Source: a virus
Lineage: Duplodnaviria > Caudoviricetes
Direction: 5' to 3' (one strand)
IMG/VR virus record: IMGVR_UViG_3300021426_000068
Location: 1 to 64,000 of that record
DNA: 64,000 nucleotides
Below the pieces are notes generated by a model. The model did not search any database, had not been told where the DNA came from, and saw only the letters and a list, made by a program, of their open reading frames with translations. Of this stretch, positions 983-41,018 are shown in pieces. The position numbers and the translations under genes are program-made. The stretch's first letter is position 1, and each line of letters starts with the position of its first letter.

Positions 983-2155
983 TTAACTTGCAAAATTATT
1001 AAAATAATTCTTAACCAAAACAACAGGTGTTCCTTTATCACCACTACCAGTAGTCAAATCCATAAGTGAACCTAACAACCAAGTAAAATGACGAGGTGTA
1101 GTACCCTGAGAAGTCATACTTCCAACAAGATTGTTTTTCTTTGAACGTATTTCTTCTTTAATTGCTTCATTAAGTTCTTCGCCACTAAGGTTCTTATACT
1201 TATCGTCAGCAAATGCTTTAATTTTAATTTCATTAGGATAACCATCAAGTCCTGAAGTATATGCAGGACTTACTACAGGGTCAGCAAATTCCCAAATACT
1301 ACTACCAGGTTTTCCGTTTGAAGGACTATGGAAGCAACCATCACCGAAAACCATAACTTCGACAATCTTTCCTGTTTTATCAGCAATTTTTTCTTGAATT
1401 TCTTCAACAACTTTTTGTGCTTTTACCTTGTTAGGAAAAAGTTTAAGTTTCTCTTCAGTTGCTTTATTAGAACCAAGAAGACCATATTCACATTTATCAT
1501 CACAAATATTAGCAAGTGTTAGTTCTGTTTGGTCGAGTGATAAAGTTTTATTATTTGAAAGCCATTCTTTGTAATCATGTAAACCGCAATACAAAAATCC
1601 AATTTTACTACCATGTTTTACATTATAAGAAGAGTCTGGGTTTATCATTTCAAATCTTTTACCTTCTTTTTCACAAATCTCTTTATAATATTCAGTAATG
1701 TTAACACCAGTAAAAGGATTTTTACCCCTTGGGTTTCCTACTTCATCAAAGTCAGGCATAATAATTTTTACTTCATATTTAGCAGCACGTGCAATTGCTT
1801 TGAGAATCATACTAAACCTATTACGTGAGTAAATAGGACTATCTACAATAATAACATCTGGATTATTGAATTTCTTTTTAATATCTTCTGCAATTTCATC
1901 TACTGTTACATAATTTCCCTGTGCTCTTGCTACAACAGATTCAGTAATACCAATAACATCATGATGATTAATATCATAATTATATTGACCAGGTACTTCA
2001 ACTAAACCCTTTACATTTGAATTTGGATTTACAAACTTCTTTCCAAGTTTAGTTGCTTCAAGTACAGAATTAACAACAATATCTACAATATTGTCACCTT
2101 CTTTAATAATAGGGGTTTTGATACCCATGCTAATTACACCAATATTTTCGTTCAT
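983..2155 (-). CDS. F420-0:gamma-glutamyl ligase (CofE-like) family protein
   Basis: [40 protein letters not shown] motifs. Confidence 0.75.
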
Positions 2156-4005: not shown

Positions 4006-4356
4006 TTACTTAGTCTTAGGTTCAACTGATTTTCCACGAATAATATTTTCAAGTGCATCAAAGATAGATGAAATTGCTTTCCAATCGTAAAATCCGTTTG
4101 CTGCACCACCTGCAAGTAAACCAGCAACAGCACCAACCACATATTCCCAAACCACAGGAAGACCAAATGTTAAACCACCTGTTGCAACAAAACCTAACGC
4201 TATAACAACTGCAACAATCCAAGAAATCAAATGTCTTACCCAAGCAGTATCAATCTTGAAAATACCATTGATTACTGAAGTAAGTGTTGTTGTACCAACA
4301 ATAATAGAAGGAACAGCAATTAAAAGCTGTGATACCAATGTTGTGATAACTACCAT
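4006..4356 (-). CDS. small membrane protein (holin-like)
   Basis: 3 TM helices, GGAANGFYD, basic C-terminus. Confidence 0.5.
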   Translation of the reverse strand: MVVITTLVSQLLIAVPSIIVGTTTLTSVINGIFKIDTAWVRHLISWIVAVVIALGFVATGGLTFGLPVVWEYVVGAVAGLLAGGAANGFYDWKAISSIFDALENIIRGKSVEPKTK

Positions 4357-4417
4357 AATTTTTTGTTTTTATTTTATTATTATTTGATAAATATTATATA
4401 ATGTTTAAAAATTAGTG

Positions 4418-4509
4418 CGGAGGATACAGGATTCGAACCTGTGCGCCCATTTTTCTATGGACCTAGCGGTTTAGCAAACCGCCCCCTTCAGCCACTTGGG
4501 TAATCCTCC
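4418..4509 (-). tRNA. tRNA-Ser(GCT)
   Basis: GCGGT-TT GCT AA-ACCGC, long variable arm, G73. Confidence 0.93.
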
Positions 4510-4695
4510 GTTTTTTAAATATAAAATAGCCCCATTACGGTTACAAACCCTGGCAGACGAATACCGTACCTTTTTACTAATAATTTCCGTTTCTGCATAC
4601 ACTGTCCGTATTATTAAAAGTATCTGCTTACTCGCTAATGTGTTTATACTCACTTACTATTTATATTTATTAATAAATCACATGCCAAGTCGGGG

Positions 4696-4784
4696 AGTAC
4701 GTGACAGGATTCGAACCTGCATGGATGCTTTCACACCACTAGACGGTTTTGCAGACCGTTGCCTAACCACTCGACCACACGTAC
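4696..4784 (-). tRNA. tRNA-Cys(GCA) with long variable arm
   Basis: ACGGT-CT GCA AA-ACCGT, U73, 22-nt variable region. Confidence 0.85.
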
Positions 4785-4936
4785 ATAAAAAAAACAGGCT
4801 TTCAGAACCATCAGCACCTGTTACGAGTAGGATTATCTTTAGTCCCTACAGCAGACTCTTCATGTGTCTGTGTTCCACCAAGAGTTGTTGAGCGTTTCTT
4901 CAACACAAGTTCTAACTCAACGAGATAATTCTAAAA

Positions 4937-5254
4937 AATCAAATCTTTACTACATCATCTACTTGATATAACCTCGGCTTTCGGAGCATCATTCTACCAT
5001 CTTTCGAAGGAATGACTCTACACGAGGATTGCATTATCATTGGCTTATTTCCGCAGAAATTACCGATTTTACACCTCAGAGGTAAATGCATCTCTTATGA
5101 TTTATAGATTATATTCATAAGTACAAATTCGTATGACAACCCGACACTTTGGAACGGTTTCTTATTACGTATGTTAATGGCCACTTACATACCCGATTAC
5201 TCATATCCATTTGGCAAGGTCCTATATTAAAAATTACTAGGACAAGATTTGATT
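4937..5254 (-). ncRNA. candidate structured ncRNA (~318 nt)
   Basis: 11-bp terminal inverted repeat AATCAAATCTT, GC-richer interior, no ORF, within the tRNA array. Confidence 0.45.
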
Positions 5255-5293
5255 ATGCTTAACAAAGAAATGTTAAGGGGGAATATATTTCAA

Positions 5294-5359
5294 CAGAAAT
5301 CATTTTTACACGCTATCGAATTGGATGTTCAATAAATAAAAAATTGCTGTTAGATTTCT
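5294..5359 (-). ncRNA. ACAGCAA stem module RNA (copy 1)
   Basis: AGAAATC-TA-ACAGCAA...GATTTCT-G. Confidence 0.6.
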
Positions 5360-5369
5360 TAAAAATTAC

Positions 5370-5528
5370 TGGAGCCGAGAACAGGATTCGAACCTGCAAC
5401 CCCCTGATTAGGCAAGGTAGATAGAGTTGAACTATCATTTGCATTTCACCACTTTTAATACCCTGCAATCTGTCTCAGTAGATTATTCTGTATCAAGTCA
5501 GGTGCTCTACCGTTAAAGCTACCTCGGC
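5370..5528 (-). tRNA. tRNA-Thr(TGT) interrupted by an 83-nt insert (5411-5493)
   Basis: CCTGA-CTTG|insert|TAA-TCAGG, acceptor GCCGAGG/TCTCGGC, U73, CCA encoded. Confidence 0.85.
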
Positions 5529-5540
5529 CTATTATTTTAT

Positions 5541-5653
5541 CAGAAAACGTTGTTTTAAAATAAACCAAATTTTTGTTTATCACTTCGTAAAGTGATAAAA
5601 CAGTTGGAATCGAACCGACAATTTTTAACAAAAAAATTTGCTGTTTGTTTTCT
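5541..5653 (-). ncRNA. ACAGCAA module enclosing a permuted tRNA-like fold (copy 2)
   Basis: AGAAAAC-AA-ACAGCAA, T-arm GTCGG-TTCGATT-CCAAC, capped acceptor-like hairpin, D-like arm AAAA-TTTGGTTTA-TTTT, GTTTTCT-G. Confidence 0.65.
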
Positions 5654-5717
5654 TGTTACAAATATATAAATAAATAATATAAAAAACAAAATAATTTTAA
5701 TTTATTTATAATTTTTG

Positions 5718-5791
5718 GGTGAATGGTGGGAATCGAACCCACGTAGACAAGAACCACAATCTTGCGCCTAAACCACTCGGCCACATTCACC
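5718..5791 (-). tRNA. tRNA-His(GTG)
   Basis: CAAGA-TT GTG GT-TCTTG, encoded G-1 and C73. Confidence 0.93.
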
Positions 5792-5949
5792 ATATATACA
5801 GATTTTTTTGGTTTAACGTATATTCCGATGTATCTGCAAAATCACTACACGGGCCAGTTCCTCTCCGTTTCGCACCTTATTGGCCAGGTGTCGTAGTATG
5901 TACCATACTTCTACTACGCTGTTCCAGTTAGGTATGGATGGTAAAAGTC

Positions 5950-6139
5950 AATAATTATAGTTAAGTGCCCTTATTACCGCCTTACTCCCTTAATGTTTAG
6001 AATATTACTATCGTGCTACACCTTGGTTTTATGCATCTGGAGTTATCATATAGTGTTATACATTATATGAACGAACATGGGAGGATACTTTCATTTGCAA
6101 CCATGAACTTTGTCCACTAAACTTTTTACTATAATTATT
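5950..6139 (-). ncRNA. candidate structured ncRNA (~190 nt)
   Basis: 12-bp terminal inverted repeat AATAATTATAGT directly 3' of tRNA-Gly(GCC). Confidence 0.4.
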
Positions 6140-6141
6140 TG

Positions 6142-6215
6142 AGCAGTAGATGAGACTCGAACTCACAACCTTGACATTGGCAATGTCACTATCTAACCAA
6201 TTGATATACTACTGC
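6142..6215 (-). tRNA. tRNA-Gly(GCC)
   Basis: TGACA-TT GCC AA-TGTCA, U73. Confidence 0.92.
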
Positions 6216-6415
6216 ATTTACAGGTACGTAAACGAAATACCCTCAGAATTTCCCAATAGTTTATAGTTTAAAGACCTAAAACTATTAACTGGCTACTTCA
6301 CACCTACGAAAAACAGTCTCTTTTACCTAGGATTAGCACCCCTGTACGGTGATTGATGCTATATTACCGATGGTTATTGTACGTTACACCAAAAAGAACG
6401 TGTCTGTTTACTAAG

Positions 6416-6487
6416 AGCAGGTGAACAGAATCGAACTGTCATCCTCAGCTTGGAAGGCTGACGCACTAACCGTTGTGCTACACCTGC
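6416..6487 (-). tRNA. tRNA-Gly(TCC)
   Basis: TCAGC-CT TCC AA-GCTGA, U73. Confidence 0.93.
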
Positions 6488-6922
6488 ATAGTTGGAATTA
6501 TCGTATTCCAAAAACGTCAGAGTTTCACTGAAGGTTTTATAGCGTAAATTTTACCTCTATAAAGATATCACTACGTTTACGCAAACTCACAGTTCTTATA
6601 GTGATAATAATATTTAATGTTAAGCAACCATATCGTCTATGTTCTGCTTGTTTTATCATGGCCTTGGAAATGTTTGGGAATCGTCATTCACTTGACATTT
6701 TCCTTTCGGAACTTACTATGGTCTGTACCATGTTTTAACATTAAAATTTTAATTTTTCACAGATTAAATTTAACTGTATTGATGAAGGTTTTTAAAACTG
6801 TTATTATTTACTTTGCTAGCGTTCTTCAATAAAACAGAAAGAAATATCTCTTAAGAAACCTCTAGAATGTTCTTAACCTACGGAATCAGACACCTTCTAA
6901 ACCGTAATTCCTTTTACATTAA

Positions 6923-7129
6923 TTATCTATCAATTAAAACATTCTTTAATTGTTTGAATTCTCTTTTATCTTCTTTGTTTTTCTTCACTAATCTATCAAT
7001 TTTATCATCTTTACTACCACAATGCCTATCGTAAAATTTCTTTACTTTAAATGGGTAATCTTCAAAATCTTCACCGTAAATACCATGCTTAGATTTTGCT
7101 TTTTCAGAATGTAAATAAGTTTTTGACAT
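6923..7129 (-). CDS. small basic hypothetical protein
   Basis: ORF track; A-rich start context. Confidence 0.6.
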   Translation of the reverse strand: MSKTYLHSEKAKSKHGIYGEDFEDYPFKVKKFYDRHCGSKDDKIDRLVKKNKEDKREFKQLKNVLIDR

Positions 7130-7158
7130 AATTTTTATTTATTAAAATTAAATTTTTG

Positions 7159-7235
7159 TCGGGATGGCAGGAATTGAACCTGCATGTAACCAATTACACT
7201 TTCAACTCCTTATCAGGGAGAGGTGATACATCCCG
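7159..7235 (-). ncRNA. arm-shuffled tRNA-Ile(GAT)-like RNA
   Basis: CGGGATG acceptor, then CTCC-CT GAT AA-GGAG, then D-loop-like GTAATTGGTTAC, then T-arm GCAGG-TTCAATT-CCTGC, CATCCCG-A. Confidence 0.7.
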
Positions 7236-7246
7236 TTCATTTTTTG

Positions 7247-7369
7247 TTGAGAGTAGAGGAATCGAACCTCTGGCACGTCTTTATGATAGAATTGCTGTTA
7301 AATTGCTGTCTGTTTTTATTACGAAAAACGTTTTTTGCTTTTCGTATGTTACCACTACACCAACTCTCA
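7247..7369 (-). ncRNA. tRNA body with ACAGCAA module in the anticodon arm (copy 3)
   Basis: Normal acceptor, D and T arms; anticodon arm replaced by GTTTTTC-G-TAAT-AAAAAC-AG-ACAGCAA-TTTA-ACAGCAA plus a small TCT-ATCATAA-AGA hairpin. Confidence 0.7.
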
Positions 7370-7491
7370 ATATAAGTGGTTCATTACAATAAGGTTACAA
7401 CCGCTAAAAAAACCTAAATAGAATAGCAATCCTGCTCTAACGCTGCTTACGCATTTACTAAATTACATCATTCCTACCTGATAACTATTTG

Positions 7492-7612
7492 TGCGGAAGA
7501 ATGGATTCGAACCACTGACACAAAGATTTCCCAAAAACAAAAATTGCTGTTAATTTTTATATTCTAAAAATATTTCTTTAACTTTTGCTCTACCAGACTG
7601 AGCTACTTCCGC
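7492..7612 (-). ncRNA. tRNA-Phe-like body with ACAGCAA module in the anticodon arm (copy 4)
   Basis: GCGGAAG/CTTCCGC-A, normal D and T arms; AAAG...ATTTTTA-G-AATA-TAAAAAT-TA-ACAGCAA...GAA-AT-CTTT. Confidence 0.7.
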
Positions 7613-7814
7613 AATATAGTGAAATTGTATTCAATGTGTAAACATCAAATACCATACTTTCAGTTGTTTAACATTTCAAACTGTAAACCTCGGCTTTCAC
7701 TAAACCTACATGGTAAAAATAGTTTTAAGAAGTAACGTTAACTCTTCCTTAGCCATCTTATTTTAGTAGTATTATGACACTGCTACAATCACTTTAAGTA
7801 CTATTTGTGATTTG

Positions 7815-7899
7815 TCGGAATGATGGGATTCGAACCCATAAGCCCATTACAGGCACAAGTTCCTTAGACTTGCGTGTCTACCAATTGCACCACATTCCG
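7815..7899 (-). tRNA. tRNA-Leu(AAG)
   Basis: CAAGT-CT AAG GA-ACTTG, long variable arm, A73. Confidence 0.88.
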
Positions 7900-8168
7900 A
7901 TGGTGTTATACTTTTGTCACGGTTATATCCTTCTTTGCTTATTGCCACTTTAGATTATACTAAAGACAAAGGGTGTTATAACTTAGTAGGCTTAACAAAC
8001 CTAGTTCATCTTTTTATTGGTTCATGCATGTCCGCTACAATGTAAAAAAGATGTTCCCGATTGAAAAAACACTTATTGAAATCTTATACTGCTAAACGGC
8101 CATTTAGCAAAGATTTCTCACAACAGTGACAGGAATGGCCTGTTGAACCCCTTGTTCCTGTCTTTCAG

Positions 8169-8364
8169 TACTGGGTAGGGGAATCGAACCCCTATTACAA
8201 GAATGAGAGATTGTTGTAAGAGTTGAACTTACTCGTGGAGTTTTTCTATCCACTTCACCACTTTATTGGTACAACGACTTTCCTGTATTCGTCAAACAAT
8301 CTTTTAATTTGTTCAGGTTTATTCCTGTATAAATCTTGTGTACTAACCTTTATACGAACCCAGT
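8169..8364 (-). tRNA. tRNA-Glu (TTC or CTC) interrupted by a ~124-nt insert (8207-8330)
   Basis: CAAGA-TTT|insert|TCAT-TCTTG; a 1-nt junction shift gives CTC. Confidence 0.8.
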
Positions 8365-8385
8365 TTTTTAATTAAGATTTATAAG

Positions 8386-8458
8386 TAGCGCATTGCGGAT
8401 TCGAACCGCAGTGAAAGGACTGAAAATCCCTCATCCTGAACCACTAGATGAATGCGCC
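8386..8458 (-). tRNA. tRNA-Glu(TTC)
   Basis: AGGGA-TT TTC AG-TCCTT. Confidence 0.92.
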
Positions 8459-8466
8459 ATTATTCG

Positions 8467-8539
<73 letters not shown>

Positions 8540-8810
8540 ATAAAACCATACTTTAAAATCCTTTATCGAACACTTGTATGGTAATGACAAAACACGTCAG
8601 TTTTCACAGTCATATATCACTGATGGATTGTTTTACTTAAGTCATGACAAACTTAAAACTAAATAAAATTTAGAAATGATTTCTATGCATAGTATGTTAT
8701 TTCCCTTTTCTTTTGTTACTGTTTTTATTTTTATACTACTTAAAAACACTAGTAATCCAAATCGCAAATAACAAGTGACAGCCAAAAGTTATAAAAATTG
8801 TAGTTTATAT

Positions 8811-8929
8811 CGGAAAGCAATTGTTTTACATCCTTTAGGATGGGGTTGGACTTGAACCAACGAACCTCTCATGTTTTCATTTTTAGTGAAAAATGTTAAA
8901 CCATAAAAGTAAATTGCTGTATACTTTCC
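8811..8929 (-). ncRNA. ACAGCAA module enclosing a T-arm and capped hairpin (copy 5)
   Basis: GGAAAGT-AT-ACAGCAA...GTTGG-TTCAAGT-CCAAC, CATCC-TAAA-GGATG...GCTTTCC-G. Confidence 0.6.
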
Positions 8930-8936
8930 TATTTTG

Positions 8937-9008
8937 CGGTCGGTACGAGAATCGAACTCGTGTCTCCAGAGCGACAATCTGGAAGGATAACCACTACCCC
9001 AACCGACC
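8937..9008 (-). tRNA. tRNA-Asp(GTC)
   Basis: CCAGA-TT GTC GC-TCTGG, G73. Confidence 0.92.
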
Positions 9009-9073
9009 GTTTTTAATCTTTTTTACAAATATACAATAAATATATTTAAAAAACAATAAAAATATAAAATTTG

Positions 9074-9141
9074 TACCTCATGCGGATTCGAACCAGTCCT
9101 TCCTATTCCTGTAGGACGTGCTACCCTTACACCATAGAGAT
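9074..9141 (-). pseudogene. degenerate tRNA-like element
   Basis: D arm and GGTTCGAATCC present, but 6-nt anticodon loop (CAGGAA) and imperfect T and acceptor stems. Confidence 0.5.
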
Positions 9142-9473
9142 TCTGATTTAACAGACACATTAATGTGTTTCGAACCAAATTAATATGCCACCAAGTTTAA
9201 TATACTATACTTAAATATTATAATAATAAAAAACTAAGTTAATTATTATTTGATTTAAGTCACTACTTGCAAGATTTATGTAATTATAAATTATAATACT
9301 AGCGACAAACTTGGAAACGCAATTTAAAGCATTATAATATATTAAGAGCATCATATTAATTTGCAACTTAATATGAATTGTTACTTGCTGTTTTAATTTA
9401 AACTATAACCCCATGTCTCCCTCGAATATGCATTGACTAGTTACATACTTGTGGATTCTTCAAGTATCTCTCG

Positions 9474-9556
9474 TGGGTAGGGGAGGATTCGAACCTCCGA
9501 AGCCGTAGGGCGTCAGATTTACAGTCTGATGCGTTTGACCACTTCGCTACCTACCC
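9474..9556 (-). tRNA. tRNA-Tyr(GTA)
   Basis: TCAGA-CT GTA AA-TCTGA, long variable arm. Confidence 0.95.
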
Positions 9557-9683
9557 ATAGAACCGATATACCTCAGCCTCGGTAAACAACTCTGACACTA
9601 AACGATTCAGATGGTGGGACAAAGCCACGCATGAGTTTCGATTCTTAGATAAACTAGTATTTCTAAGACTGTACTAAAACAAA

Positions 9684-9950
9684 AAAGATATTAGAGGAAC
9701 TTTATCAGGAATCTTGCTAACATATACCGAACTTATAAGAAACTTACGCACTTGTTTCTTAACAACTTGTCACGTCCATATACTGCTTCACACACCATTA
9801 GAGAGACGATAAATATAAAACCCAACAATATTTATTTTCCTTAGTGTGTACCTTTCCGTACTGTTTAACCTGTTCAGCGTTAAAACTCACTGTCAATTCA
9901 GTTAACTGCTCTCCCAGCCTGTTCCAATCAACGTCTTTACTAATATCTTT
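9684..9950 (-). ncRNA. candidate structured ncRNA (~267 nt)
   Basis: 11-bp terminal inverted repeat AAAGATATTAG, no ORF. Confidence 0.45.
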
Positions 9951-9957
9951 AAATTAA

Positions 9958-10326
9958 TTATTCTATATTTGTTATATAAATATCTTTTGGATGTTCGCCA
10001 AATACATCATGTGTTACATTACATATCCATATTTCATGGTCAATTATACCAAGTTCATTTGTTAAAATTTCAGCAAATTCATTGTATAAAATTCCAGAAA
10101 TTCCATAATATGCACCTTCACTATCATGTTTTTTAAGATTAAAATGTAATAATGTATTATTAGAATACTCATCAGATATTTCCAATACTATTTCTTTTTT
10201 ACCTTTTGACAACAAATCTAATGCTATGTCAGAACCCATTACCATTTCATTTTCTTCTAACGTATGATTTGGAATATCTGCATACCATTTATTGTCTTGT
10301 TTAAAACATTTAATCTTTTTTTTCAT
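9958..10326 (-). CDS. conserved hypothetical protein
   Basis: WYADIP...EMVMGSD...IWICNVT..VFG.HP..IY. Confidence 0.75.
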   Translation of the reverse strand: MKKKIKCFKQDNKWYADIPNHTLEENEMVMGSDIALDLLSKGKKEIVLEISDEYSNNTLLHFNLKKHDSEGAYYGISGILYNEFAEILTNELGIIDHEIWICNVTHDVFGEHPKDIYITNIE

Positions 10327-10341
10327 ATTTCTAATTTTTTG

Positions 10342-10414
10342 TGGGCACAGGTAGAATCGAACTACCGCTGTAATCTTGTAAGGGTTACCGTCTAAACCAC
10401 TAGCTTATGCACCC
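10342..10414 (-). tRNA. tRNA-Val(TAC)
   Basis: TAACC-CT TAC AA-GATTA (one mismatch), A73. Confidence 0.8.
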
Positions 10415-10636
10415 AAAATTGCCCATCCATCTTTCATGATGTCTCAGTGAACACGCAAGGTCTTTTGCGTATGCTAAACCAATGTATCCTCTTTGTGCTA
10501 CTTCTTCGTCTATATTCAGAGTTAATACGATTACCTACACATACTCAATACAAATTTTAACTATACACCAGCCATTACCTTCCCTCTGATTCGGTAACTT
10601 CTTCTCATATAGTTGATAAGATGGCCCAACAAGACG

Positions 10637-10707
10637 TTGGGATATCATGATTCGAACATGAACTGAGAGAGCCAAAATCTCTAGTGCTACCATTACACCA
10701 TATCCCA
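10637..10707 (-). tRNA. tRNA-Gln(TTG)
   Basis: U1:A72, AGAGA-TT TTG GC-TCTCT. Confidence 0.92.
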
Positions 10708-10875
10708 ATAAAGGTAGCCACAGTCTTATTACTACCATTGAGTACTACGTTCTGTGCAACGTCTTTAAGTACATCTCACACCTTAAAGAATCCTAGTAAT
10801 ATTGATTAGACATTTATCTAATAAGATTTAGGAAAAGTTATTACAAATATACAATTTTATTTTTAGAAAAGCAAT

Positions 10876-11009
10876 CAGAAAACGTGTTTATTCTGTTTTA
10901 TCCGCTAAACTAATACTTATTGCATACATAATAAGTATGGTGGATTCGAACCAACCGACTTTTTCATTACAGGAAATAATATAACATAAAAAATTGCTGT
11001 TTATTTTCT
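10876..11009 (-). ncRNA. ACAGCAA module enclosing a complete circularly permuted tRNA (GTA loop) (copy 6)
   Basis: AGAAAAT-AA-ACAGCAA, TTTC-CT GTA AT-GAAA, AAGTC, T-arm, ATACTTA-linker-TAAGTAT, TA, D arm GTTT-AGCGGATA-AAAC, GTTTTCT-G. Confidence 0.72.
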
Positions 11010-11038
11010 TAAAAATTGCTTTGTTTTTTGTATGCTAG

Positions 11039-11206
11039 CGGGTACGGTAGGATTCGAACCTACGACCTGAGGATTAGGTACACTATTCAGATTTGAACTG
11101 AAATTACCAATGTTTAGGTTTCTTACCATTAGAAGATAATGTACTGGTTTATTACGGTGAACCACACCTTATACAGTCCCCTGCACTACCACTGTGCTAC
11201 ATACCC
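11039..11206 (-). tRNA. tRNA-Asn(GTT) interrupted by a 96-nt insert (11077-11172)
   Basis: GGGGA-CTGT|insert|TAA-TCCTC, G73. Confidence 0.85.
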
Positions 11207-11945
11207 TAATATATTCTATTAAATCTTTTTTCTTATTAGGTAATTTGTTTTTTTTACACCACTTCTTTAATGCATTATCAGAAACATTTAACTGTTTTCC
11301 AACAGATGTAAAACTACCATTTGTTTTAAATAATTCTAAAAAATATTCAATTGAAAGTTTAGAAAGTTTGTTGTTTTGTTTCTGATACTTAATATCATTC
11401 CTTTTCAACAATCTATTTAATGTTGAAATACTTATTAAGTATTTTTTAGAAATTTCTTTTTTTGTTAAATTATTAACAATATCATTTTTAATGCTATTAA
11501 TATCAATGCCATTAACAAATGTTTTGTTTTTTCTTTTTTCTTTATGCAATGAAAAATAATTTATTTCGTTTTCTGTTTCTTTTTTGTTTCGATTTTTAAC
11601 TTCTTCTTTAATTTTACTATGTATTTCTCTATGACAATTAGCACAAACTAAAATACATTTATCTGCTTCTTTTTTTAATGTTTCAAATTTAAGAGTATTA
11701 CCACAAGAAATACCAAATTCTTTTTCTTGTGGGTTTAAATGATGAAATTCGAGAGCATCAATACATTTATCATAACCACATATTTCACATTTACCACCTT
11801 TATATTCAACTAGTTTAATTTTATTTTTTTTTCTAGTATCTATAACTGCTTTTTTTCTACATTCTTTACATTTATAAGCACCATTAGTTAATACGTGTTC
11901 TGTGATACCATGTTTGGGGCATTCTTTAAATATTATATTTTTCAT
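11169..11945 (-). CDS. HNH homing endonuclease with C-terminal HTH
   Basis: KGGKCEICGY..CIDALEFHHLNP...CILVCANCHREIH. Confidence 0.88.
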   Translation of the reverse strand: MKNIIFKECPKHGITEHVLTNGAYKCKECRKKAVIDTRKKNKIKLVEYKGGKCEICGYDKCIDALEFHHLNPQEKEFGISCGNTLKFETLKKEADKCILVCANCHREIHSKIKEEVKNRNKKETENEINYFSLHKEKRKNKTFVNGIDINSIKNDIVNNLTKKEISKKYLISISTLNRLLKRNDIKYQKQNNKLSKLSIEYFLELFKTNGSFTSVGKQLNVSDNALKKWCKKNKLPNKKKDLIEYIRVCSTVVVQGTV

Positions 11946-12017
11946 AATTTACTTTTATAATAAATATAACCAAAAATCAAAAAATTAAACATTTTAGTTA
12001 ATTTTTATAAAAGTTAG

Positions 12018-12088
12018 TACACCCATAGTGATTCGAACACTAATAATCACTTTAGAAGAGTGATGTCCTTCCATTGAACGATGGGTGC
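12018..12088 (-). tRNA. tRNA-Arg(TCT)
   Basis: TCACT-CT TCT AA-AGTGA. Confidence 0.92.
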
Positions 12089-12148
12089 ATATGCCGTTCC
12101 TACGTCTTCTTTTTGTTTAAATAATTTAAAACAATTTCATCAAATTTG

Positions 12149-12466
12149 TGACCCCTGTGGGACTCGAACCCACGACCCCGACATTAACTTTACCACTATA
12201 ACTTTCATTATCCAACTCAATGAGTTGTTGTGGTCTGGACTATTTCATAACCATGCATTTCTGTTTAGGTTTCTCCTATATAGTCTCTACGCCATTTATG
12301 AACAATGTTCAATTTAGTAAGCCATCACCACATAATATGTCACCATATTACAGGCTTCTGTTTGTTAGGGAGATTCTACTTTAACAATTTCTTGTTAAGC
12401 ACTCTTTTTTTGTAATTTTATTACAAATTTTAAGTGTCGTGCTCTAGCCAACTGAGCTAAGAGGTC
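12149..12466 (-). tRNA. tRNA-Lys(TTT) with group I intron
   Basis: CGACA-CTT|intron|TTAA-TGTCG. Confidence 0.87.
12188..12431 (-). mobile_element. group I intron (244 nt, no ORF) in tRNA-Lys anticodon
   Basis: 5' exon ends in U, intron ends in G, P7 pair GACTA (GTAGAGACTATA) / TAGTC (GAAATAGTCCAG). Confidence 0.85.
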
Positions 12467-12574
12467 AATCCAATCTAATAATATATACATGGGGTATCTT
12501 ATTCCTATCCATGTGTTACTTCCTAAATCCCTTAGTACTTTTTAAGTACAATATATTATTAAATCAAAAATTTG

Positions 12575-12649
12575 TGGGGCCGAGTGGAGTTGAACCACTG
12601 CCTATGGATTTTCAGTCCATTGTACAATAACCACCTATACGACAGCCCC
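12575..12649 (-). tRNA. tRNA-Phe(GAA)
   Basis: ATGGA-CT GAA AA-TCCAT. Confidence 0.9.
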
Positions 12650-12844
12650 ATAAATTGTAATACTCAATGCAGTAATACGTACTCCTGCAAATTTTACATC
12701 CAGTGTTTTAACCTCATAAACTACTCACGCATCCGCTACTGAAAGACTTGAACTAACTTCTCTGGGTTGTAGTATTTTTAAAAAAAATTTTTGTAACGTC
12801 AAAAATATCTGAAAAAACGAAAAACACATATGAGTTTTTAAAAG

Positions 12845-12916
12845 TACTCCCAACAGGAATCGAACCTATACTATTAGTTCCGTAGACTAACGTTCTATCC
12901 GTTAAACTATGGGAGC
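12845..12916 (-). tRNA. tRNA-Arg(ACG)
   Basis: TTAGT-CT ACG GA-ACTAA, A20. Confidence 0.9.
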
Positions 12917-12927
12917 ATAATAATTAG

Positions 12928-12999
12928 CAGGAGCACTCTGATTCAAACAGAGGTCAGAACTTTTGGAGAGTCCTATGTTAATCACTACACCATGCTCCT
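12928..12999 (-). tRNA. tRNA-Trp(CCA)
   Basis: GGACT-CT CCA AA-AGTTC, G73; atypical T loop TTTGAAT. Confidence 0.85.
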
Positions 13000-13177
13000 G
13001 TATATATTATTAATAATAAAATTTCCACGAAGGGAGAAGTCTAACTCCCACTTCGTTTAACGACTTTTTACTAACAGAACAACATATCCACGTTTGTCTT
13101 TCCTATTTGTATTTTTGATACATCAAAAGCCTGAGGTCTGTGGACGATAACTCTAAACACAATGTTGTTAAATTATA

Positions 13178-13244
13178 CGGAAAACATTTATTGGCATTAA
13201 AAACCCATTTTTTAATAATTGAAATAAGTTGCTGTACGTTTTCC
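13178..13244 (-). ncRNA. ACAGCAA stem module RNA (copy 7)
   Basis: GGAAAAC-GT-ACAGCAA...GTTTTCC-G. Confidence 0.6.
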
Positions 13245-13249
13245 TTTTG

Positions 13250-13405
13250 TCGGGAAGACAGGACTCGAACCTGCGACCCCTGGTTCGGTCTGTATATAAG
13301 ATTCGAACTTATGATACTTCCGTTATTATACAGACTCACCAATTTTTCAGCTATTGGTTAACTGTAGCCAAAACCAGTGTTCTAAACCAACTGAACTACT
13401 TCCCG
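13250..13405 (-). tRNA. tRNA-Pro(TGG) interrupted by an 81-nt insert (13287-13367)
   Basis: CTGGT-TTTGG|insert|GA-ACCAG, C1:G72, A73. Confidence 0.87.
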
Positions 13406-13651
13406 ATATAATAACCGAGGTTCTTACTGTGCTCGGTCCACAGGATAGAAACTATTAACGTCACCATCATACAACATCGAATTTTATGAATAAGATTGTT
13501 ACCACGATGTATTTTACTTCCCTAATAAGTAAAGTATAACAAAATATGGTTTGCACTGTGTCCACACAGGTAACAAAAACATGTGGAAACCATTAAGTAC
13601 ACTATTTGTTACCTACCATTACTCTGTAATGGATTTAATTTAATATTAAAT

Positions 13652-13826
13652 AAAAAGTTAATAAAAAGGAATTCCGTAGTCACCTTTTTTAAATAAGAAA
13701 CCTCTTGCACTATTTACACAAGCCTAAAGCGTAACTAATCCTTATTTTCCACTGTTTTGATGCCTTGATATTCAGCCATATTTAGAATATTATGTTATAG
13801 CATCCCCAACTTGTAATTAACTTTTT
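13652..13826 (-). ncRNA. candidate structured ncRNA (~175 nt)
   Basis: 11-bp terminal inverted repeat AAAAAGTTAAT directly 3' of tRNA-Met. Confidence 0.3.
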
Positions 13827-13827
13827 G

Positions 13828-13902
13828 TTGCGTAGACTGGGATTGAACCAGTGACCTAGAGGATATGAATCTCACGTTCTAACCAGACTGAACTATTACG
13901 CT
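13828..13902 (-). tRNA. tRNA-Met(CAT), probably initiator
   Basis: TT CAT AT loop, unpaired 1:72; weak anticodon stem. Confidence 0.75.
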
Positions 13903-13909
13903 AAATCAA

Positions 13910-13991
13910 CAGGAAACATAAAATAAAATGTTACAAAACCCAAAAATTTGCTATTTTAATTAATTTATTATAAATTTGCTGTAAGTTTCCT
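13910..13991 (-). ncRNA. ACAGCAA stem module RNA (copy 8)
   Basis: AGGAAAC-TT-ACAGCAA...GTTTCCT-G. Confidence 0.6.
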
Positions 13992-13995
13992 TAAA

Positions 13996-14781
13996 TTAAC
14001 TTTCTTTAATATTTTTAATTATTTTTTCTTTCCAATAGTTTCTTCTTGTACTATTTTTATTTTTTGATTTAAATGTTTCTAATTGAGTATCACAATTTGG
14101 ACATATCATTCTAAGATTATCTCTTCTGTTATTTGCAGCATTTCCATCAATATGGTCAAGTACAAAAACTAGTGGCTTACCATTCCATTCTGGTTTACAT
14201 GTGCAACCTTCAATAGCACATTCATAATTCTGTTCTTTCAAAAAGAAATCTTTGAAACTTTTAGGTGTGTATCCGCCATTACAATATTGTTCATTATTTT
14301 CTAAAAATCTTTCATAAGAAATTTTATGTTTATATTTACTTGAACAACTATTGGAACAGAATTTTGTTTGATTACCATTTAATTCTTTATCACAATTTAA
14401 ACAATATTTTTTTACTTTTATTTTTTCTTGAATAATTCGTTTATTCTTACGTTTTTTTAATTTTGTTTTTATTTTTTCTTTAGTTTCGTCACTATGTTTT
14501 CTTCCTTTATTATTATAGGTTGCAGCACAAGATGAACTACAAAATTTTGTTTGTCCACGTTTTAGTTCTTTACCACAATTTAAACAATATTTCTTTTTTT
14601 TCTTTTTATAAAAAGAGAAGTCAAAACCGATTTTTTCCGCAATATCATTTATATAACTGATTCCAATTTTATTATCTGGAATATTGAAATATGAATGTAT
14701 ATCACCTTTTTTCTCAAAAGATTCAAATATTTCTAATACGTTTTTCTTCTTTTCTTCAGTTGAAATATCAATACTATTCAT
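13996..14781 (-). CDS. HNH homing endonuclease (Zn-finger repeats, NUMOD3-like)
   Basis: CLNC...FCSxSC twice, HSDETKEKI, LDHIDGNAANNRRDNLRMICPNC. Confidence 0.88.
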   Translation of the reverse strand: MNSIDISTEEKKKNVLEIFESFEKKGDIHSYFNIPDNKIGISYINDIAEKIGFDFSFYKKKKKKYCLNCGKELKRGQTKFCSSSCAATYNNKGRKHSDETKEKIKTKLKKRKNKRIIQEKIKVKKYCLNCDKELNGNQTKFCSNSCSSKYKHKISYERFLENNEQYCNGGYTPKSFKDFFLKEQNYECAIEGCTCKPEWNGKPLVFVLDHIDGNAANNRRDNLRMICPNCDTQLETFKSKNKNSTRRNYWKEKIIKNIKES

Positions 14782-14855
14782 AATAAATTTGTTTATATAT
14801 AAATAGTATATATTTCGGAAAAAATCAAGATTGAACATGAAAAAATAAACAATTG

Positions 14856-14945
14856 CGGAGGCAGTAGGATTCGAACCCACGCGGCCCTGTTACAAGCCCT
14901 AGCTGATTTCAAGTCAGCCCCCTTCAACCACTTGGGTATGCCTCC
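14856..14945 (-). tRNA. tRNA-Ser(TGA)
   Basis: GCTGA-CT TGA AA-TCAGC, long variable arm, G73. Confidence 0.94.
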
Positions 14946-15118
14946 ATTGGTGACTGGATAAGTTATCACACTACACCAGTCAGTTATGGTTAAATTATTT
15001 CAATTCACATATCTATAATTAACATTATATAATATTTATCAGACTTGTCAATGAACTTATCAAAGTTTTTACAAATATACTAAGAAGTTTTGATATTTCA
15101 AAATATATTTTTATTTTT

Positions 15119-15153
15119 CTGTTTTTTAATATATCAAATACTGTGCCAAACTT
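15119..15153 (-). promoter_or_regulatory. sigma54-like promoter, copy of a 35-bp direct repeat
   Basis: TTGGCACA-GTAT-TTGA; identical to 15531-15565. Confidence 0.55.
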
Positions 15154-15177
15154 TAAAATTTCACAATATTTTTTATG

Positions 15178-15261
15178 TGGCACAGGTGGGAATCGAACCC
15201 ACACTCTCAAATGAGAACAACATTTTGAGTGTTGCGTGTATACCAATTTCACCACTGTGCC
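15178..15261 (-). tRNA. tRNA-Leu(CAA)
   Basis: CAACA-CT CAA AA-TGTTG, long variable arm. Confidence 0.93.
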
Positions 15262-15267
15262 AAAAAT

Positions 15268-15513
15268 AATCTTGAAAATAAACAGGCTTACCTTAGATTT
15301 ACACCTCTCACGGAAGGTTAAGGAAACACCGTCATGTTTTATGCTCGCTGAAGTTTCGAACCCATCAGTATCTTTAAAGCAACCTTAATTACTTTTGTTC
15401 CGACTATACCATTTCACACTCTGTACACAAGCGGTAATTTTATACTTGGTAGCACTCTTTGTCATTTAATTTTTCGTTAGTGACCAACCCTGGGATGTAA
15501 CGTTTTCAAGATT
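15268..15513 (-). ncRNA. candidate structured ncRNA (~246 nt)
   Basis: 11-bp terminal inverted repeat AATCTTGAAAA, internal GGGTTCGAAAC T-loop-like motif, just downstream of a sigma54-like site. Confidence 0.45.
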
Positions 15514-15530
15514 TTTTATTTTTCAAAGAA

Positions 15531-15565
15531 CTGTTTTTTAATATATCAAATACTGTGCCAAACTT
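15531..15565 (-). promoter_or_regulatory. sigma54-like promoter, copy of a 35-bp direct repeat
   Basis: Identical to 15119-15153. Confidence 0.55.
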
Positions 15566-15577
15566 AAAATATCTCAT

Positions 15578-15611
15578 AAAAAAAACCTCCTAAGATGTAT
15601 ACTTGGAGGTT
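15578..15611 (-). terminator. intrinsic terminator (attenuator)
   Basis: AACCTCCAAG-loop-CTTAGGAGG-T8; the 5' arm can alternatively pair with the end of the leader ORF. Confidence 0.75.
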
Positions 15612-15667
15612 GGGAATATATTGTGGTTAGAAACCTATGTGTGTTTTTGTACCTATTTACTATATCC

Positions 15668-15793
15668 CTACTCCAAGTTTTTTTCTCTAAAGTTTCCTTT
15701 AGATGCTTTTGGGTCTACTGATGGCATACCAAACCAATAACTTGTTTGAACCAAGCCATTGCAAAGATTAATATTTGTATTGATATGTCTCAT
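15668..15793 (-). CDS. putative 41-aa attenuator leader peptide
   Basis: MRHINTNINLCNGLVQTSYWFGMPSVDPKASKGNFREKNLE-TAG; last codons overlap the antiterminator strand. Confidence 0.65.
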   Translation of the reverse strand: MRHINTNINLCNGLVQTSYWFGMPSVDPKASKGNFREKNLE

Positions 15794-15934
15794 ATTAGGA
15801 TATTTTTTCAACTATAAATATTTTATTTTTTACAAAAATACATATTTTTTAATAAAAAAACAATATTTTTTGTGAAATTTTTAAAAAAAGTTAAATTTTC
15901 AGGTAAATTTATTCTTTTTCGAATAAATTCATTG

Positions 15935-16005
15935 TGACACATATAGGATTCGAACCCATCTATTCTGTTTTAGGGACAGCTGACCAACCCCTGGTCCAAT
16001 GTGCC
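15935..16005 (-). tRNA. amber-reading tRNA (anticodon CTA)
   Basis: GGCACAT/ATGTGTC-A, GACC/GGTC D arm, CTGT-CC CTA AA-ACAG, normal T arm; C33 is atypical. Confidence 0.7.
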
Positions 16006-16058
16006 ATATTTGGGGATTGATTAAAGGATAATCCCCATAAATCCTTGACAACAATAAG

Positions 16059-16346
16059 TTATTTAACTGTTTCTAAATTTTTAAAAAGTTCACCTGTATC
16101 ATCTTGTACTGCGATTGCAGTTATAGAATAATTTAAATCAGGTTCACGAAATGCAGAGAAACGAATTCCCATTCTTTGAAGTTTGTTAAACCACTTATCA
16201 GTATCAGCATATAAATATATTAAATAGTCATTGTTCCAATCTTGATTTGGATTATTTATCATCCATTGTGCAACTGCATGTCCACCTTGCACACATCCGT
16301 ATACGGGTCTAAGTTTTTTATTCACTAATACGTATAATCTTTTCAT
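16059..16346 (-). CDS. peptidyl-tRNA hydrolase II (Pth2)-like protein
   Basis: LYVLV...VQGGHAVAQW...FREPDL..SITAIA. Confidence 0.7.
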   Translation of the reverse strand: MKRLYVLVNKKLRPVYGCVQGGHAVAQWMINNPNQDWNNDYLIYLYADTDKWFNKLQRMGIRFSAFREPDLNYSITAIAVQDDTGELFKNLETVK

Positions 16347-16980: not shown

Positions 16981-18171
16981 CTAATTTGATATATTTTTCA
17001 AATTTGATTCAATACTATCATTAATATATAAGTTATCAAATTTAACGGTTAACGGAAAGTATTTAAATAATTCACTCACATTTTCGTGAATATTTTCTGT
17101 TATTTTTTCACGTTTTCCCTTATAAATATAATTAAATTCATCAATATTATCAAGTAAATCCCAATGAGTTACAACAAGATTAAGCTTTAAATTATATTGA
17201 CACCAAAAATTGTCTATACAATGTCTATTAAATGCTTCGTTTAATAAATCAAGATTTAAAATACCAGTTTTAAAATTTCCCTGAAATTCATTATACACAT
17301 TAGTTTCATGTTTATTTGTTAAATCGAAATTAAAACCTATTTTATTTGGTTCATAACCATTTCCGTGTCTGGTTAAATATGTTCTTGTAACAAAATAAAC
17401 TTCAGCATTATAAAGACTTTTTTCAAGAAATTTATCGTTAATAAAAGCATTTAGACCAACTTTAGATGGTGTAACATGTGGAAAAAAACCTCTTTCCATA
17501 TCAAGTAACAATCCTTGACTACCTTCAAAAATAAGTACATCAAAAAGTGAAAGTAATAAACCACCACCTGTTATACTAAATATACCACTGTACTCAATAT
17601 TATCGTCAACCATTTTACGATAAAGTTCACCTTCAGGAGAATAGTCTGTTGTTTCATTGTTAGAATAGTAATATAGTTCTAATTCTTCTAATGTTGTACT
17701 TTCTAAAAAATTTTCAGCATTAACATGAAAACCTTCTTTTTCTCTTTTAAAAGTTGGGTATATACCCCTTCCACAAGTACCATCTTTAATGATTTTTATA
17801 TCATTTCTACCACAAAAAACTTCATATGGTGTTATAAATGGTGTTTTTGGCATTACGTAAAGTGGTGGTACATTTTCCATTTTAGTTTTTAAAACTTCAT
17901 ATTCATTTTTCGCACTAATTGGGTCAAAATAAGCTGTTTTCCATATTAAAGTTGGTACTCCTAATAGAACACCGCTACCATAACTTGAACAAATATGTTC
18001 TATATTATTATAATTAACAGTATGTGCTGCTTGTGGCCCTCCGCTAAAGCGAATGACAAGGGGTTTTTTCCCCTCGTCAATTGCTTTTTTGCATAAGTAT
18101 TGTACTGTTACACCTTTACCTTCGTCACCAAAAGCTGAACCCAGTACTATTTTTATTTCTGTATTTTCCAT
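16981..18171 (-). CDS. adenylosuccinate synthetase-like protein (divergent PurA family)
   Basis: GSAFGDEGKG, RFSGGPQAAHTV, IFEGSQGLLLD, VTRTYLTRHGNG. Confidence 0.85.
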   Translation of the reverse strand: MENTEIKIVLGSAFGDEGKGVTVQYLCKKAIDEGKKPLVIRFSGGPQAAHTVNYNNIEHICSSYGSGVLLGVPTLIWKTAYFDPISAKNEYEVLKTKMENVPPLYVMPKTPFITPYEVFCGRNDIKIIKDGTCGRGIYPTFKREKEGFHVNAENFLESTTLEELELYYYSNNETTDYSPEGELYRKMVDDNIEYSGIFSITGGGLLLSLFDVLIFEGSQGLLLDMERGFFPHVTPSKVGLNAFINDKFLEKSLYNAEVYFVTRTYLTRHGNGYEPNKIGFNFDLTNKHETNVYNEFQGNFKTGILNLDLLNEAFNRHCIDNFWCQYNLKLNLVVTHWDLLDNIDEFNYIYKGKREKITENIHENVSELFKYFPLTVKFDNLYINDSIESNLKNISN

Positions 18172-40192: not shown

Positions 40193-40250
40193 CAAAACCA
40201 TAATGTTTAACTATTTATATAAAAATAATAGTTAAATAAAAATAAATATT

Positions 40251-41018
40251 ATGTATTTAAATGACCCTCGTGAAAATACTATTGATTTAGATAAACATGC
40301 AATATGGGAAAGTGATAATAGAATAGAAAAAAGATATATTTGGAATGGTTTGATTACTGATTTATGTGACTTACCAATTGAAGAATATATGAAAAACCCA
40401 ATTATTGAAGCTATTAAATCTTCAGGTTCAGATTCAGGCTCTTCACAAGCCATTGAAGAACTTAATGAAACTGTAAAAGATTTAAGAGATAAAGTATTAA
40501 ATAGTATGGAAGAAGATACTAATGAAATTGTTAGTGCTATTACTGATAATGCTAATTCAATCATACAAATACTTAGTGGTGGTACATATGAACAAATTTT
40601 ATTCTTTTATACATCTGTCAATAATCAAATACCATATTCTAATATTAAAAAAGAAATGTTTTTTTCAGGTGTAATCAATATTAATAGTGAAGGTTTTATT
40701 ACCTATATGTTAGGTGACCCATCTGAAGAAGATTGGAACTTATATAGTTCAGGAACAATAACTGAATCAGAATTAGTTGATAGAAGTAATAATGATTACT
40801 ATTTAGTTGTACCTAAAAAATATGGTATAACTAAAAATTTTGTTATTATGGAAGAAGGAAGTTCAGACGTTACAAATTCATTTGTGGAAGTATCTGAATT
40901 AAGTAATTTGTTTGAAGGATATATTGTTTTTAAATCACATGATAAAGACCATTTTAATATTGACTTTCCTTCAGAAAAAAATATTAAAATAATTCATAAA
41001 ATAAAATTTTTTAACTAA
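40251..41018 (+). CDS. hypothetical (likely virion) protein
   Basis: ORF track; ACTATTTATA motif upstream. Confidence 0.7.
   Translation: MYLNDPRENTIDLDKHAIWESDNRIEKRYIWNGLITDLCDLPIEEYMKNPIIEAIKSSGSDSGSSQAIEELNETVKDLRDKVLNSMEEDTNEIVSAITDNANSIIQILSGGTYEQILFFYTSVNNQIPYSNIKKEMFFSGVININSEGFITYMLGDPSEEDWNLYSSGTITESELVDRSNNDYYLVVPKKYGITKNFVIMEEGSSDVTNSFVEVSELSNLFEGYIVFKSHDKDHFNIDFPSEKNIKIIHKIKFFN

Follow-up and report, generated by a model that had tools for sequence, protein, structure and literature searches.

Probable introns with an embedded tRNA-like domain interrupt four tRNA genes of a rumen huge phage

The DNA analysed here, referred to below as the window, is the initial 64 kb (64,000 nucleotides, nt) of IMG/VR virus record IMGVR_UViG_3300021426_000068, a single 132.8-kb contig with a G+C content of 27.6% and a CheckV completeness of 37%. 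The source is a rumen huge phage, and DNA near-identical to the contig is found in gut metagenomes of cattle, sheep and goat. Besides homing endonucleases, a PurZ-like adenylosuccinate synthetase and other phage genes, the contig carries on its minus strand, between 4.4 and 16 kb, an array of 27 transfer RNA (tRNA) or tRNA-like genes that includes a CTA suppressor. A megablast comparison of this array with GenBank phages returned short tRNA matches only. Four genes of the array, those for Thr, Glu, Asn and Pro, are interrupted in the anticodon loop by inserts that each contain a small tRNA-like domain, and these inserts, their relatives in other huge phages and the way in which they might be removed are the subject of this study.

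All four genes are read from the minus strand. The first, tRNA-Thr(TGT) (5373-5528), is interrupted between positions 35 and 36, with exon 1 at 5494-5528 and exon 2 at 5373-5410, and is scored by the Rfam tRNA model at 47.6 bits across 156 nt. Its 83-nt insert (5411-5493) opens with the leader AUA (5491-5493) and a CAG/CUG hairpin (5488-5490 with 5476-5478), followed by the second stem of a pseudoknot in which AAUCU (5480-5484) pairs with AGAUU (5467-5471); an acceptor-like stem (5459-5466 with 5412-5419), a T arm (5420-5436) and a terminal C (5411) make up the 3' part. The insert of tRNA-Asn(GTT) (11039-11206; 54 bits across 168 nt), also at 35/36, is 96 nt long (11077-11172) and consists of the leader AUAA, a GGUG/CACC hairpin, a pseudoknot of UGGUU (11160-11164) with AACCA (11145-11149), an acceptor-like stem (11137-11144 with 11078-11085), a T arm (11086-11102) and a terminal C at 11077. 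Exon 1 of this gene is overlapped by one of two free-standing HNH homing-endonuclease open reading frames (ORFs) that lie inside the array on the minus strand (11169-11945 and 13996-14880), and the stop codon of the overlapping ORF is the UAA of the intron leader. tRNA-Pro(TGG) (13250-13405; 52.9 bits across 156 nt) is split at 36/37 by 81 nt (13287-13367) comprising the leader CUA, a CAGUUA/UAGCUG hairpin whose loop ACCAA pairs with UUGGU to form the pseudoknot, an acceptor-like stem (13328-13335 with 13288-13295), a T arm (13296-13312) and a terminal C at 13287. The fourth gene, a second copy of tRNA-Glu(TTC) (8170-8363), is split at 34/35 by the longest insert (124 nt, 8207-8330), which belongs to a subtype resembling the tRNA introns of Lak megaphages discussed below. 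Here the leader AUA and the hairpin CAGG-AAUAAA-CCUG are followed by an A-rich linker with no pseudoknot, and then by an acceptor-like stem (8295-8302 with 8208-8215) that holds three extra hairpins, a T arm (8216-8232) and a terminal C at 8207. An intact tRNA-Glu(TTC) lies alongside at 8385-8458.

The four inserts follow a common plan: a leader of 3-4 nt, a hairpin, an 8-base-pair (bp) closing stem around a loop that contains GG, a T arm of 5 bp whose loop reads UUCRANU, and a single final C. In Thr, Asn and Pro the hairpin loop additionally pairs with the bases directly 5' of the closing stem to give an H-type pseudoknot, a second stem that Glu does not have. Removing each insert yields a 7-nt anticodon loop and the expected ARAGORN call (Thr tgt, Glu ttc, Asn gtt and Pro tgg), and, with no base repeated across a junction, the boundaries are unique and cannot be shifted. 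When the unspliced genes were submitted, ARAGORN misnamed Thr as Arg, Asn as Ser and Pro as Ala, and the Rfam tRNA model did not call the interrupted Glu gene. Standard tRNA finders thus miss or misname such genes, which distorts the tRNA sets of phages and the recoding predictions made from them. No Rfam family matched any of the four inserts, either at gathering thresholds or at E-values up to 5. An earlier note on this DNA had proposed the four inserts with these boundaries, insertion sites, stems, T arms, hairpins and final C, had recognized that Glu has no second knot stem, and had remarked that the array holds no intact Thr, Asn or Pro tRNA; our reading of the minus strand and the ARAGORN calls on the spliced forms agree with it on every one of these points.

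We used a DUF6717 protein encoded inside the array (9958-10326) as a handle to related huge-phage contigs in IMG/VR, whose whole records were then scanned with the Rfam tRNA model and with ARAGORN in intron mode for oversized tRNA genes bearing homologous inserts. A link between DUF6717 itself and the introns was considered and rejected, as the gene lies far from the tRNAs in two of these phages (G003 and G007). A first covariance model, built from five inserts of one subfamily from two other phages, recovered the window Thr and Asn inserts, along with other members, at exactly the boundaries that had been drawn by hand. A second model (R2), built from 14 members that include the window Thr, Asn and Pro inserts and exclude Glu, was applied to 14 viral records and supplemented by two motif scans of IMG/VR. 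The three window inserts in its training set scored 69.0 bits (Thr; E = 1.1e-13), 67.7 bits (Asn; E about 1e-13) and 38.8 bits (Pro), and Glu, from outside the training set, aligned over its full length at 27.6 bits, a score within the range of false positives. Those model matches of up to 33.1 bits on uninterrupted stretches that were inspected (for example, 10636-10729) proved to be ordinary tRNAs with an upstream hairpin and were discarded, as was an ordinary tRNA scoring 34.7 bits in G005 (40203-40303). Since true members also fall into this range (Glu at 27.6 bits and a Leu insert of G009 at 26.4 bits), a score cut-off cannot separate members from false matches, and membership was therefore decided by position in the anticodon loop together with an ARAGORN call of the spliced form.

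By this rule, 26 members were confirmed in 11 phage records, the window's own and 10 others from IMG/VR, interrupting genes for Thr, Glu, Asn, Pro, Met(CAT), Leu(TAA), Val, Arg(CCT), Arg(TCT), Lys(TTT) and Tyr. Asn introns occupy the same site in G002, G004 and G010, with fully covarying stems. One further insert is reduced to the 5' module: the only tRNA-Trp(CCA) of the 363-kb G007 carries 46 nt in its anticodon loop (L014, 2575-2620, minus strand) that comprise an AUA leader, hairpin and pseudoknot, with neither the tRNA mimic nor the terminal C.

Alignment of the 26 members showed standard pairs in 93.5% of the pair cells, compared with 55% after shuffling and 31-41% when the partners were slid by 1-3 columns. 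Compensatory double changes were found at 8 of 8 pairs of the closing (acceptor-like) stem, 4 of 5 pairs of the T stem, 2 of 3 pairs of the hairpin and 5 of 5 pairs of the pseudoknot. The alignment was fitted to the nested helices of the model, and because the pseudoknot is not part of that model, its covariation counts as independent support. These results lie far outside what chance would produce and bear out the proposal of a single structured family with one shared architecture, and the pseudoknot, T arm and acceptor-like stem covary as the earlier note had anticipated. Four features are nearly invariant: U2, A3 (25/26), the G:C pair closing the T loop (equivalent to G53:C61; 26/26) and the final C (26/26). 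Among the 24 introns for which flanking sequence was available (23 members and the Trp insert of G007), U2 is present in all, A3 in 23 and a last base C in 23, the Trp insert being the one that does not end in C; the exon base before the 5' site may be T, C, G or A. Inspection by eye for complementarity between intron and exons, such as an internal guide would need, brought nothing consistent to light.

The 3' end follows a ruler. From the start of the T loop to the 3' splice site there are exactly 21 nt in all 26 members, as counted in the first 15 and as shown for the whole set by the ungapped alignment columns 129-154; the T loop contributes 7 of them, the stacked layers 13 and an unpaired base the last. 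The layers are divided between acceptor-like stem and T stem as 8+5, 9+4 or 7+6 and are mostly all paired, with mismatches in a few members. As the two stems always add up to 13 layers, the 3' splice site falls at a fixed 21 nt, and to judge from the sequences it appears to be this distance from the T loop that sets it. A 13-pair acceptor/T helix has the length of that in tRNA-Sec (8/5 or 9/4), ordinary tRNAs having 12, and in a tRNA-like geometry the final C would take the place of the discriminator base. The 5' module is less fixed (27-32 nt), and Glu has a plain hairpin and an A-rich linker in place of the knot. The mimic retains the T loop and the D-like GG, but its interior can be as short as 12 nt or as long as about 60 nt, the larger members having a D arm and a long variable arm. 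We considered whether the inner domains might be working tRNAs and rejected this, as their anticodon arms are absent or, in the larger members, degenerate, so that these cannot decode.

The four inserts are almost certainly true introns, because the exons are intact, three of the four genes are the only ones for their amino acid and the predicted spliced Thr product is matched exactly by an uninterrupted allele in a relative. Within the Thr(TGT) lineage, whose exons are at least 95% identical, three forms of the gene exist: G005 has it uninterrupted, the window has its intron at 35/36, and G002 has one from another subfamily at 34/35. The spliced window Thr has 95% identity to the uninterrupted Thr(TGT) of the related phage, which supplies the insert-less orthologue that the earlier note had led one to look for, and the spliced window Pro has 87% identity to an intact Pro(TGG) in G007. 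The three allele forms show that the element is mobile. The subtype of the window Thr intron recurs in the Arg(TCT) gene of G010, and the Pro introns of three phages (the window, G006 and G010) share one site with entirely different, yet complementary, stems. Taken together, the Thr alleles, the recurrence in Arg(TCT) and the differing Pro stems point to repeated independent insertion at anticodon positions 34-37 combined with selection for precise removal. In their behaviour the introns look like selfish mobile elements, and they probably persist as selfish inserts in the way of the group I-like introns of the same arrays.

For the removal itself we favour a route by protein enzymes, to which we assign a probability of about 0.4, in which an RNase Z-type cut after the discriminator-like C and a nuclease cut at N|NUA are followed by sealing by an RNA ligase of the Rnl2 family. 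Through the tRNA mimic, the 3' junction would be offered to whichever enzyme trims the tRNAs of the array itself; these need RNase Z-type cutting after the discriminator because 26 of the 27 array genes lack an encoded CCA (one has it). Such a cut would give exon 2 a 5'-phosphate. A second endonuclease would cut at N|NUA, three bases 5' of the hairpin or knot that would position it, and leave a 3'-OH; a site of the RNase E/G type would fit the invariant U at +2, which accords with the preferences of these enzymes. The nick in the anticodon loop would then be closed by the Rnl2-family ligase, an enzyme encoded by the near-complete relatives and by Lak phages, and RNase P may trim the released intron further. 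The variation of the 5' module, knot in some members and plain hairpin in others, is more in keeping with a protein that reads shape than with a catalytic core of fixed form. Matches to the RNA ligase family PF09414 were obtained for ORFs of G001, G007 (two ORFs) and G011 and, weakly, for G002; those of a relative at L091 1435-2091 (minus strand) and L092 1444-2124 (plus strand) are 218-226 amino acids long. The annotations of Lak phages include T4 RNA ligase 2 as well as a CCA-adding enzyme (Devoto et al. 2019, PMC6784885). Neither RtcB nor T4 Rnl1 was found in G000, G001, G002, G006 and G007, although the Rnl1 control gave no signal anywhere, which makes that blank a weak one.

Several observations weigh against this route. 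The suggestion to scan the rest of the genome for a ligase was answered in part: the Rnl2-family genes just listed come from relatives, and the window's own record (37% complete) shows no ligase. Rnl2-type ligases are, moreover, common in large phages for other reasons. Contigs from four metatranscriptome runs (Logan), compared with 4300-16200, contain no spliced junctions or intron ends; these contigs span the spacers between tRNAs and break at the tRNA genes themselves. Loose contig ends at 13280 and 8208 were considered as splice products and rejected, since they come from uninterrupted tRNAs of other organisms or strains, and in one contig the 164-nt region that holds the Pro gene is replaced by 117 other letters whose content could not be read. 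The proposal of a 5' nuclease is conjecture based on a single invariant base. The knot lies only 0-1 nt from the acceptor-like stem, on which it is probably stacked, and could in that position hinder RNase P and RNase Z too. The knot-only insert in the sole Trp gene of G007 implies that the tRNA mimic is perhaps dispensable for splicing, and the 2H phosphoesterase gene in the tRNA array of that phage would suit cyclic-phosphate ends.

The last two observations lead to the strongest competitor, which we regard as unlikely on balance: a small ribozyme of a new class that splices itself or cuts itself twice. Its catalytic part would consist of leader, hairpin and knot, the tRNA-like domain would be a rigid scaffold, and the ends would be joined by the RNA itself or, if they are a cyclic phosphate and a 5'-OH, by host RtcB. 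The Trp insert, which retains the knot module alone, and the phosphoesterase both fit this model, and the other mobile introns of bacterial and phage tRNA anticodon loops are self-splicing, with group I-like introns present in these very arrays. Insertion at 34/35, 35/36 and 36/37 in many different tRNAs is the pattern expected of reverse splicing into an exposed loop, and the junction bases U2, A3 and last C are near-invariant. Against it, the 5' module has no conserved core and its knot is missing from the Glu and Lak introns, the mimic interior varies in length (12 to about 60 nt), and the two splice sites would lie about one helical turn apart, as estimated from helix geometry. No Rfam ribozyme family was matched at E-values up to 5, the order of the helices is unlike that of the pistol, hepatitis delta virus (HDV)-like, twister and hatchet ribozymes, and the complete elbow, 13 stacked pairs and single unpaired base resemble the substrate of a tRNA enzyme. 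The more specific version, in which the leader, hairpin and knot are the core of a self-splicing or self-cleaving RNA of about 30-80 nt that enters exposed anticodon loops by reverse splicing, with the tRNA mimic as an optional scaffold, we hold to be a little less likely again; if true, it would add a third kind to the autocatalytic introns of bacteria and phages.

It is improbable, in our judgement, that the introns are kept for a benefit, either by hiding the anticodon until a phage factor is made or by protecting the tRNA or its gene from host anticodon nucleases or from the array's free-standing homing endonucleases. Known anticodon nucleases cut at anticodon positions 34-37, the interval that contains every insertion site, and HNH endonuclease ORFs lie in the array, one of them overlapping Asn exon 1 and ending inside the intron leader. 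Close relatives, however, have the same tRNAs intron-free, the set of interrupted tRNAs differs between phages as that of sporadic mobile elements would, no regulator was identified, and a spliced tRNA would be no less exposed to nucleases than any other. Least probable of all is that the inserts are never removed and are tRNA-derived mobile elements that inactivate the gene; RNase P and RNase Z would then free the inner tRNA-like RNA as the sole product, possibly with a function of its own. In favour of this reading, the inner domain is a good mimic of an RNase P/Z-type substrate, the interrupted Glu gene adjoins an intact one and spliced RNA was not seen in contigs that break at tRNA genes, but the canonical exons (Rfam scores of 47-54 bits for Thr, Asn and Pro despite the inserts, and at least 95% identity to the intact allele), the lack of any other phage copy of the window Thr, Asn and Pro and G007 Trp genes, the placement of 26 of 26 inserts such that removal restores an exact 7-nt loop, and the retention of orthologous introns across diverged phages together argue for selection on the spliced product.

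Other features of the array and its surroundings were noted. In tRNA-Lys(TTT) (12148-12466, minus strand), 244 nt are inserted after CUU (34/35); the insert has G as its last base and motifs in common with inserts of 185-600 nt in Ser, Leu and other tRNAs of relatives; judged by its sequence it looks like a compact group I intron, and the Rfam Intron_gpI model did not match it. A second kind of insert occurs at 7492-7612 (minus strand), where a tRNA-like gene (Rfam, 49 bits) is split by about 49 nt containing a hairpin and then AACAGCAA. The same hairpin-ACAGCAA module is also found 3' of several ordinary tRNAs of the array, the motif lying on the minus strand at 5344, 5638, 7292, 7303, 7544, 8914, 9385, 10994, 13229 and 13976, and it interrupts tRNAs in G005 and G007 too, in one case within the anticodon stem. 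The pattern ACAGCRA has 20 matches against 8.6 expected, and 10 of the 20 are on the minus strand at 5.3-14 kb. A weak tRNA-like gene at 7159-7235 (minus strand; Rfam, 33.6 bits) has a normal acceptor stem and T arm and an odd D and anticodon region, and received no ARAGORN call. The spacers at 4932-5286, 7921-8151, 8561-8903, 9681-9957 and 13414-13873 (200-670 nt) have few or no ORFs of at least 50 amino acids and are the best-represented parts of the array in four rumen metatranscriptome assemblies, with contig depths of up to about 340; further non-coding RNAs may be encoded there. The CTA (amber) suppressor tRNA is at 15934-16005 (minus strand), and the standard code reads the ORFs almost equally well. 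The PurZ-like gene (16981-18171, minus strand; PHROG 'aminooxy adenylosuccinate synthetase') hints at a genome containing 2-aminoadenine, and an F420-ligase-like ORF lies at 983-2155 (minus strand). The first 15 positions of the window, where the contig starts, read GTGCTCTTCCGATCT and resemble an Illumina adapter remnant from assembly.

Bacteria and their phages are not known to remove tRNA introns by any means other than group I self-splicing. The family described here, first noted in 2019, seems to need either ordinary tRNA-trimming enzymes together with an RNA ligase or a new miniature ribozyme, and either would be new biochemistry. Group I tRNA introns resemble the present ones in lying in the anticodon loop, in being mobile and sporadic and in occurring in the same arrays (Lys(TTT) in the window, and several relatives). 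The present introns differ in being only 46-124 nt long, in lacking a terminal G, and in having no conserved U before the 5' site, no P3-P9 core (about 200 nt or more in group I introns) and no Intron_gpI match at E-values up to 5. Archaeal and eukaryotic tRNA introns, which also lie in or near the anticodon loop, are spliced by proteins (the splicing endonuclease with RtcB or Trl1 ligase), whereas the hosts here are bacteria; transposition of tRNA introns between genes has been proposed in the Thermoproteales. The bulge-helix-bulge motif of that system, in which two 3-nt bulges on either side of a 4-bp helix carry the splice sites, cannot form here: the 3' site follows an 8-bp stem at a distance of one base, the 5' site precedes a hairpin by three unpaired bases, and the stem ties up the end of the intron and leaves a single C free. 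The claim that the inserts are neither group I/II nor archaeal introns therefore holds, on their C end, their length, the blank Intron_gpI search and the missing bulge-helix-bulge. Among small ribozymes, the hammerhead, twister, twister-sister, pistol, hatchet and HDV-like models of Rfam 15 gave no covariance-model match to the inserts at E-values up to 5, a search that does not cover families outside Rfam (e.g. theta ribozymes). A parallel in form is offered by mitochondrial tRNA punctuation and the mascRNA of MALAT1, where an embedded mimic of acceptor, T arm and elbow likewise marks the cuts of tRNA enzymes. Those elements are not inside a tRNA and their flanks are not ligated, and enzyme cleavage of the phage element is only predicted.

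The nearest known system is that of the Lak megaphages, whose tRNA introns were called 'enigmatic', with 'no hit in rfam' (Devoto et al. 2019, Nat Microbiol, PMC6784885; Fig. 4 and Table S6). The same authors remarked that a Thr(TGT) intron 'may encode a tRNA', used intron-free alleles to place the excision points, and gave no shared architecture, mechanism or family model; we found no later mechanistic study of phage tRNA introns in the literature searched. The present genomes, a 133-kb fragment and relatives of 168-412 kb, are distinct from Lak. In both groups the introns are anticodon-loop inserts in tRNAs of huge gut phages, have no Rfam match and occur beside alleles without them. Read by eye, the Lak sequences in Table S6 (entered there as Tyr, Phe, Thr and Gly) begin with N-U-A and a hairpin, have 8+5, 9+4 or 7+6 pairs around the T loop and end in one C. 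Those shown have a plain hairpin and, like the window Glu intron, an AAUAAA hairpin loop, an A-rich linker and no knot, whereas the window Thr, Asn and Pro introns and most of the relatives have a covarying pseudoknot. From its sequence, the 'Tyr GTA' gene of Lak A1/A2 (74 nt, no long variable arm, with an intron starting AUAC and ending in a stem and C) would read better as Asn(GTT) split at 35/36. All four window introns lie within anticodon positions 34-37 and restore a 7-nt loop, have the N-U-A start, hairpin and final C, and keep the 13 layers and the 21-nt ruler, and by these features we assign them to the published Lak-type family, of which Thr, Asn and Pro represent a pseudoknot-bearing form. 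The earlier note's view of a possibly undescribed class is thus superseded: the class itself was published in 2019, and what is new here is its shared architecture. The rules that define it (NUA start, covarying knot, 13 stacked pairs, 21-nt distance and final C) make these 'enigmatic' introns testable at the bench.

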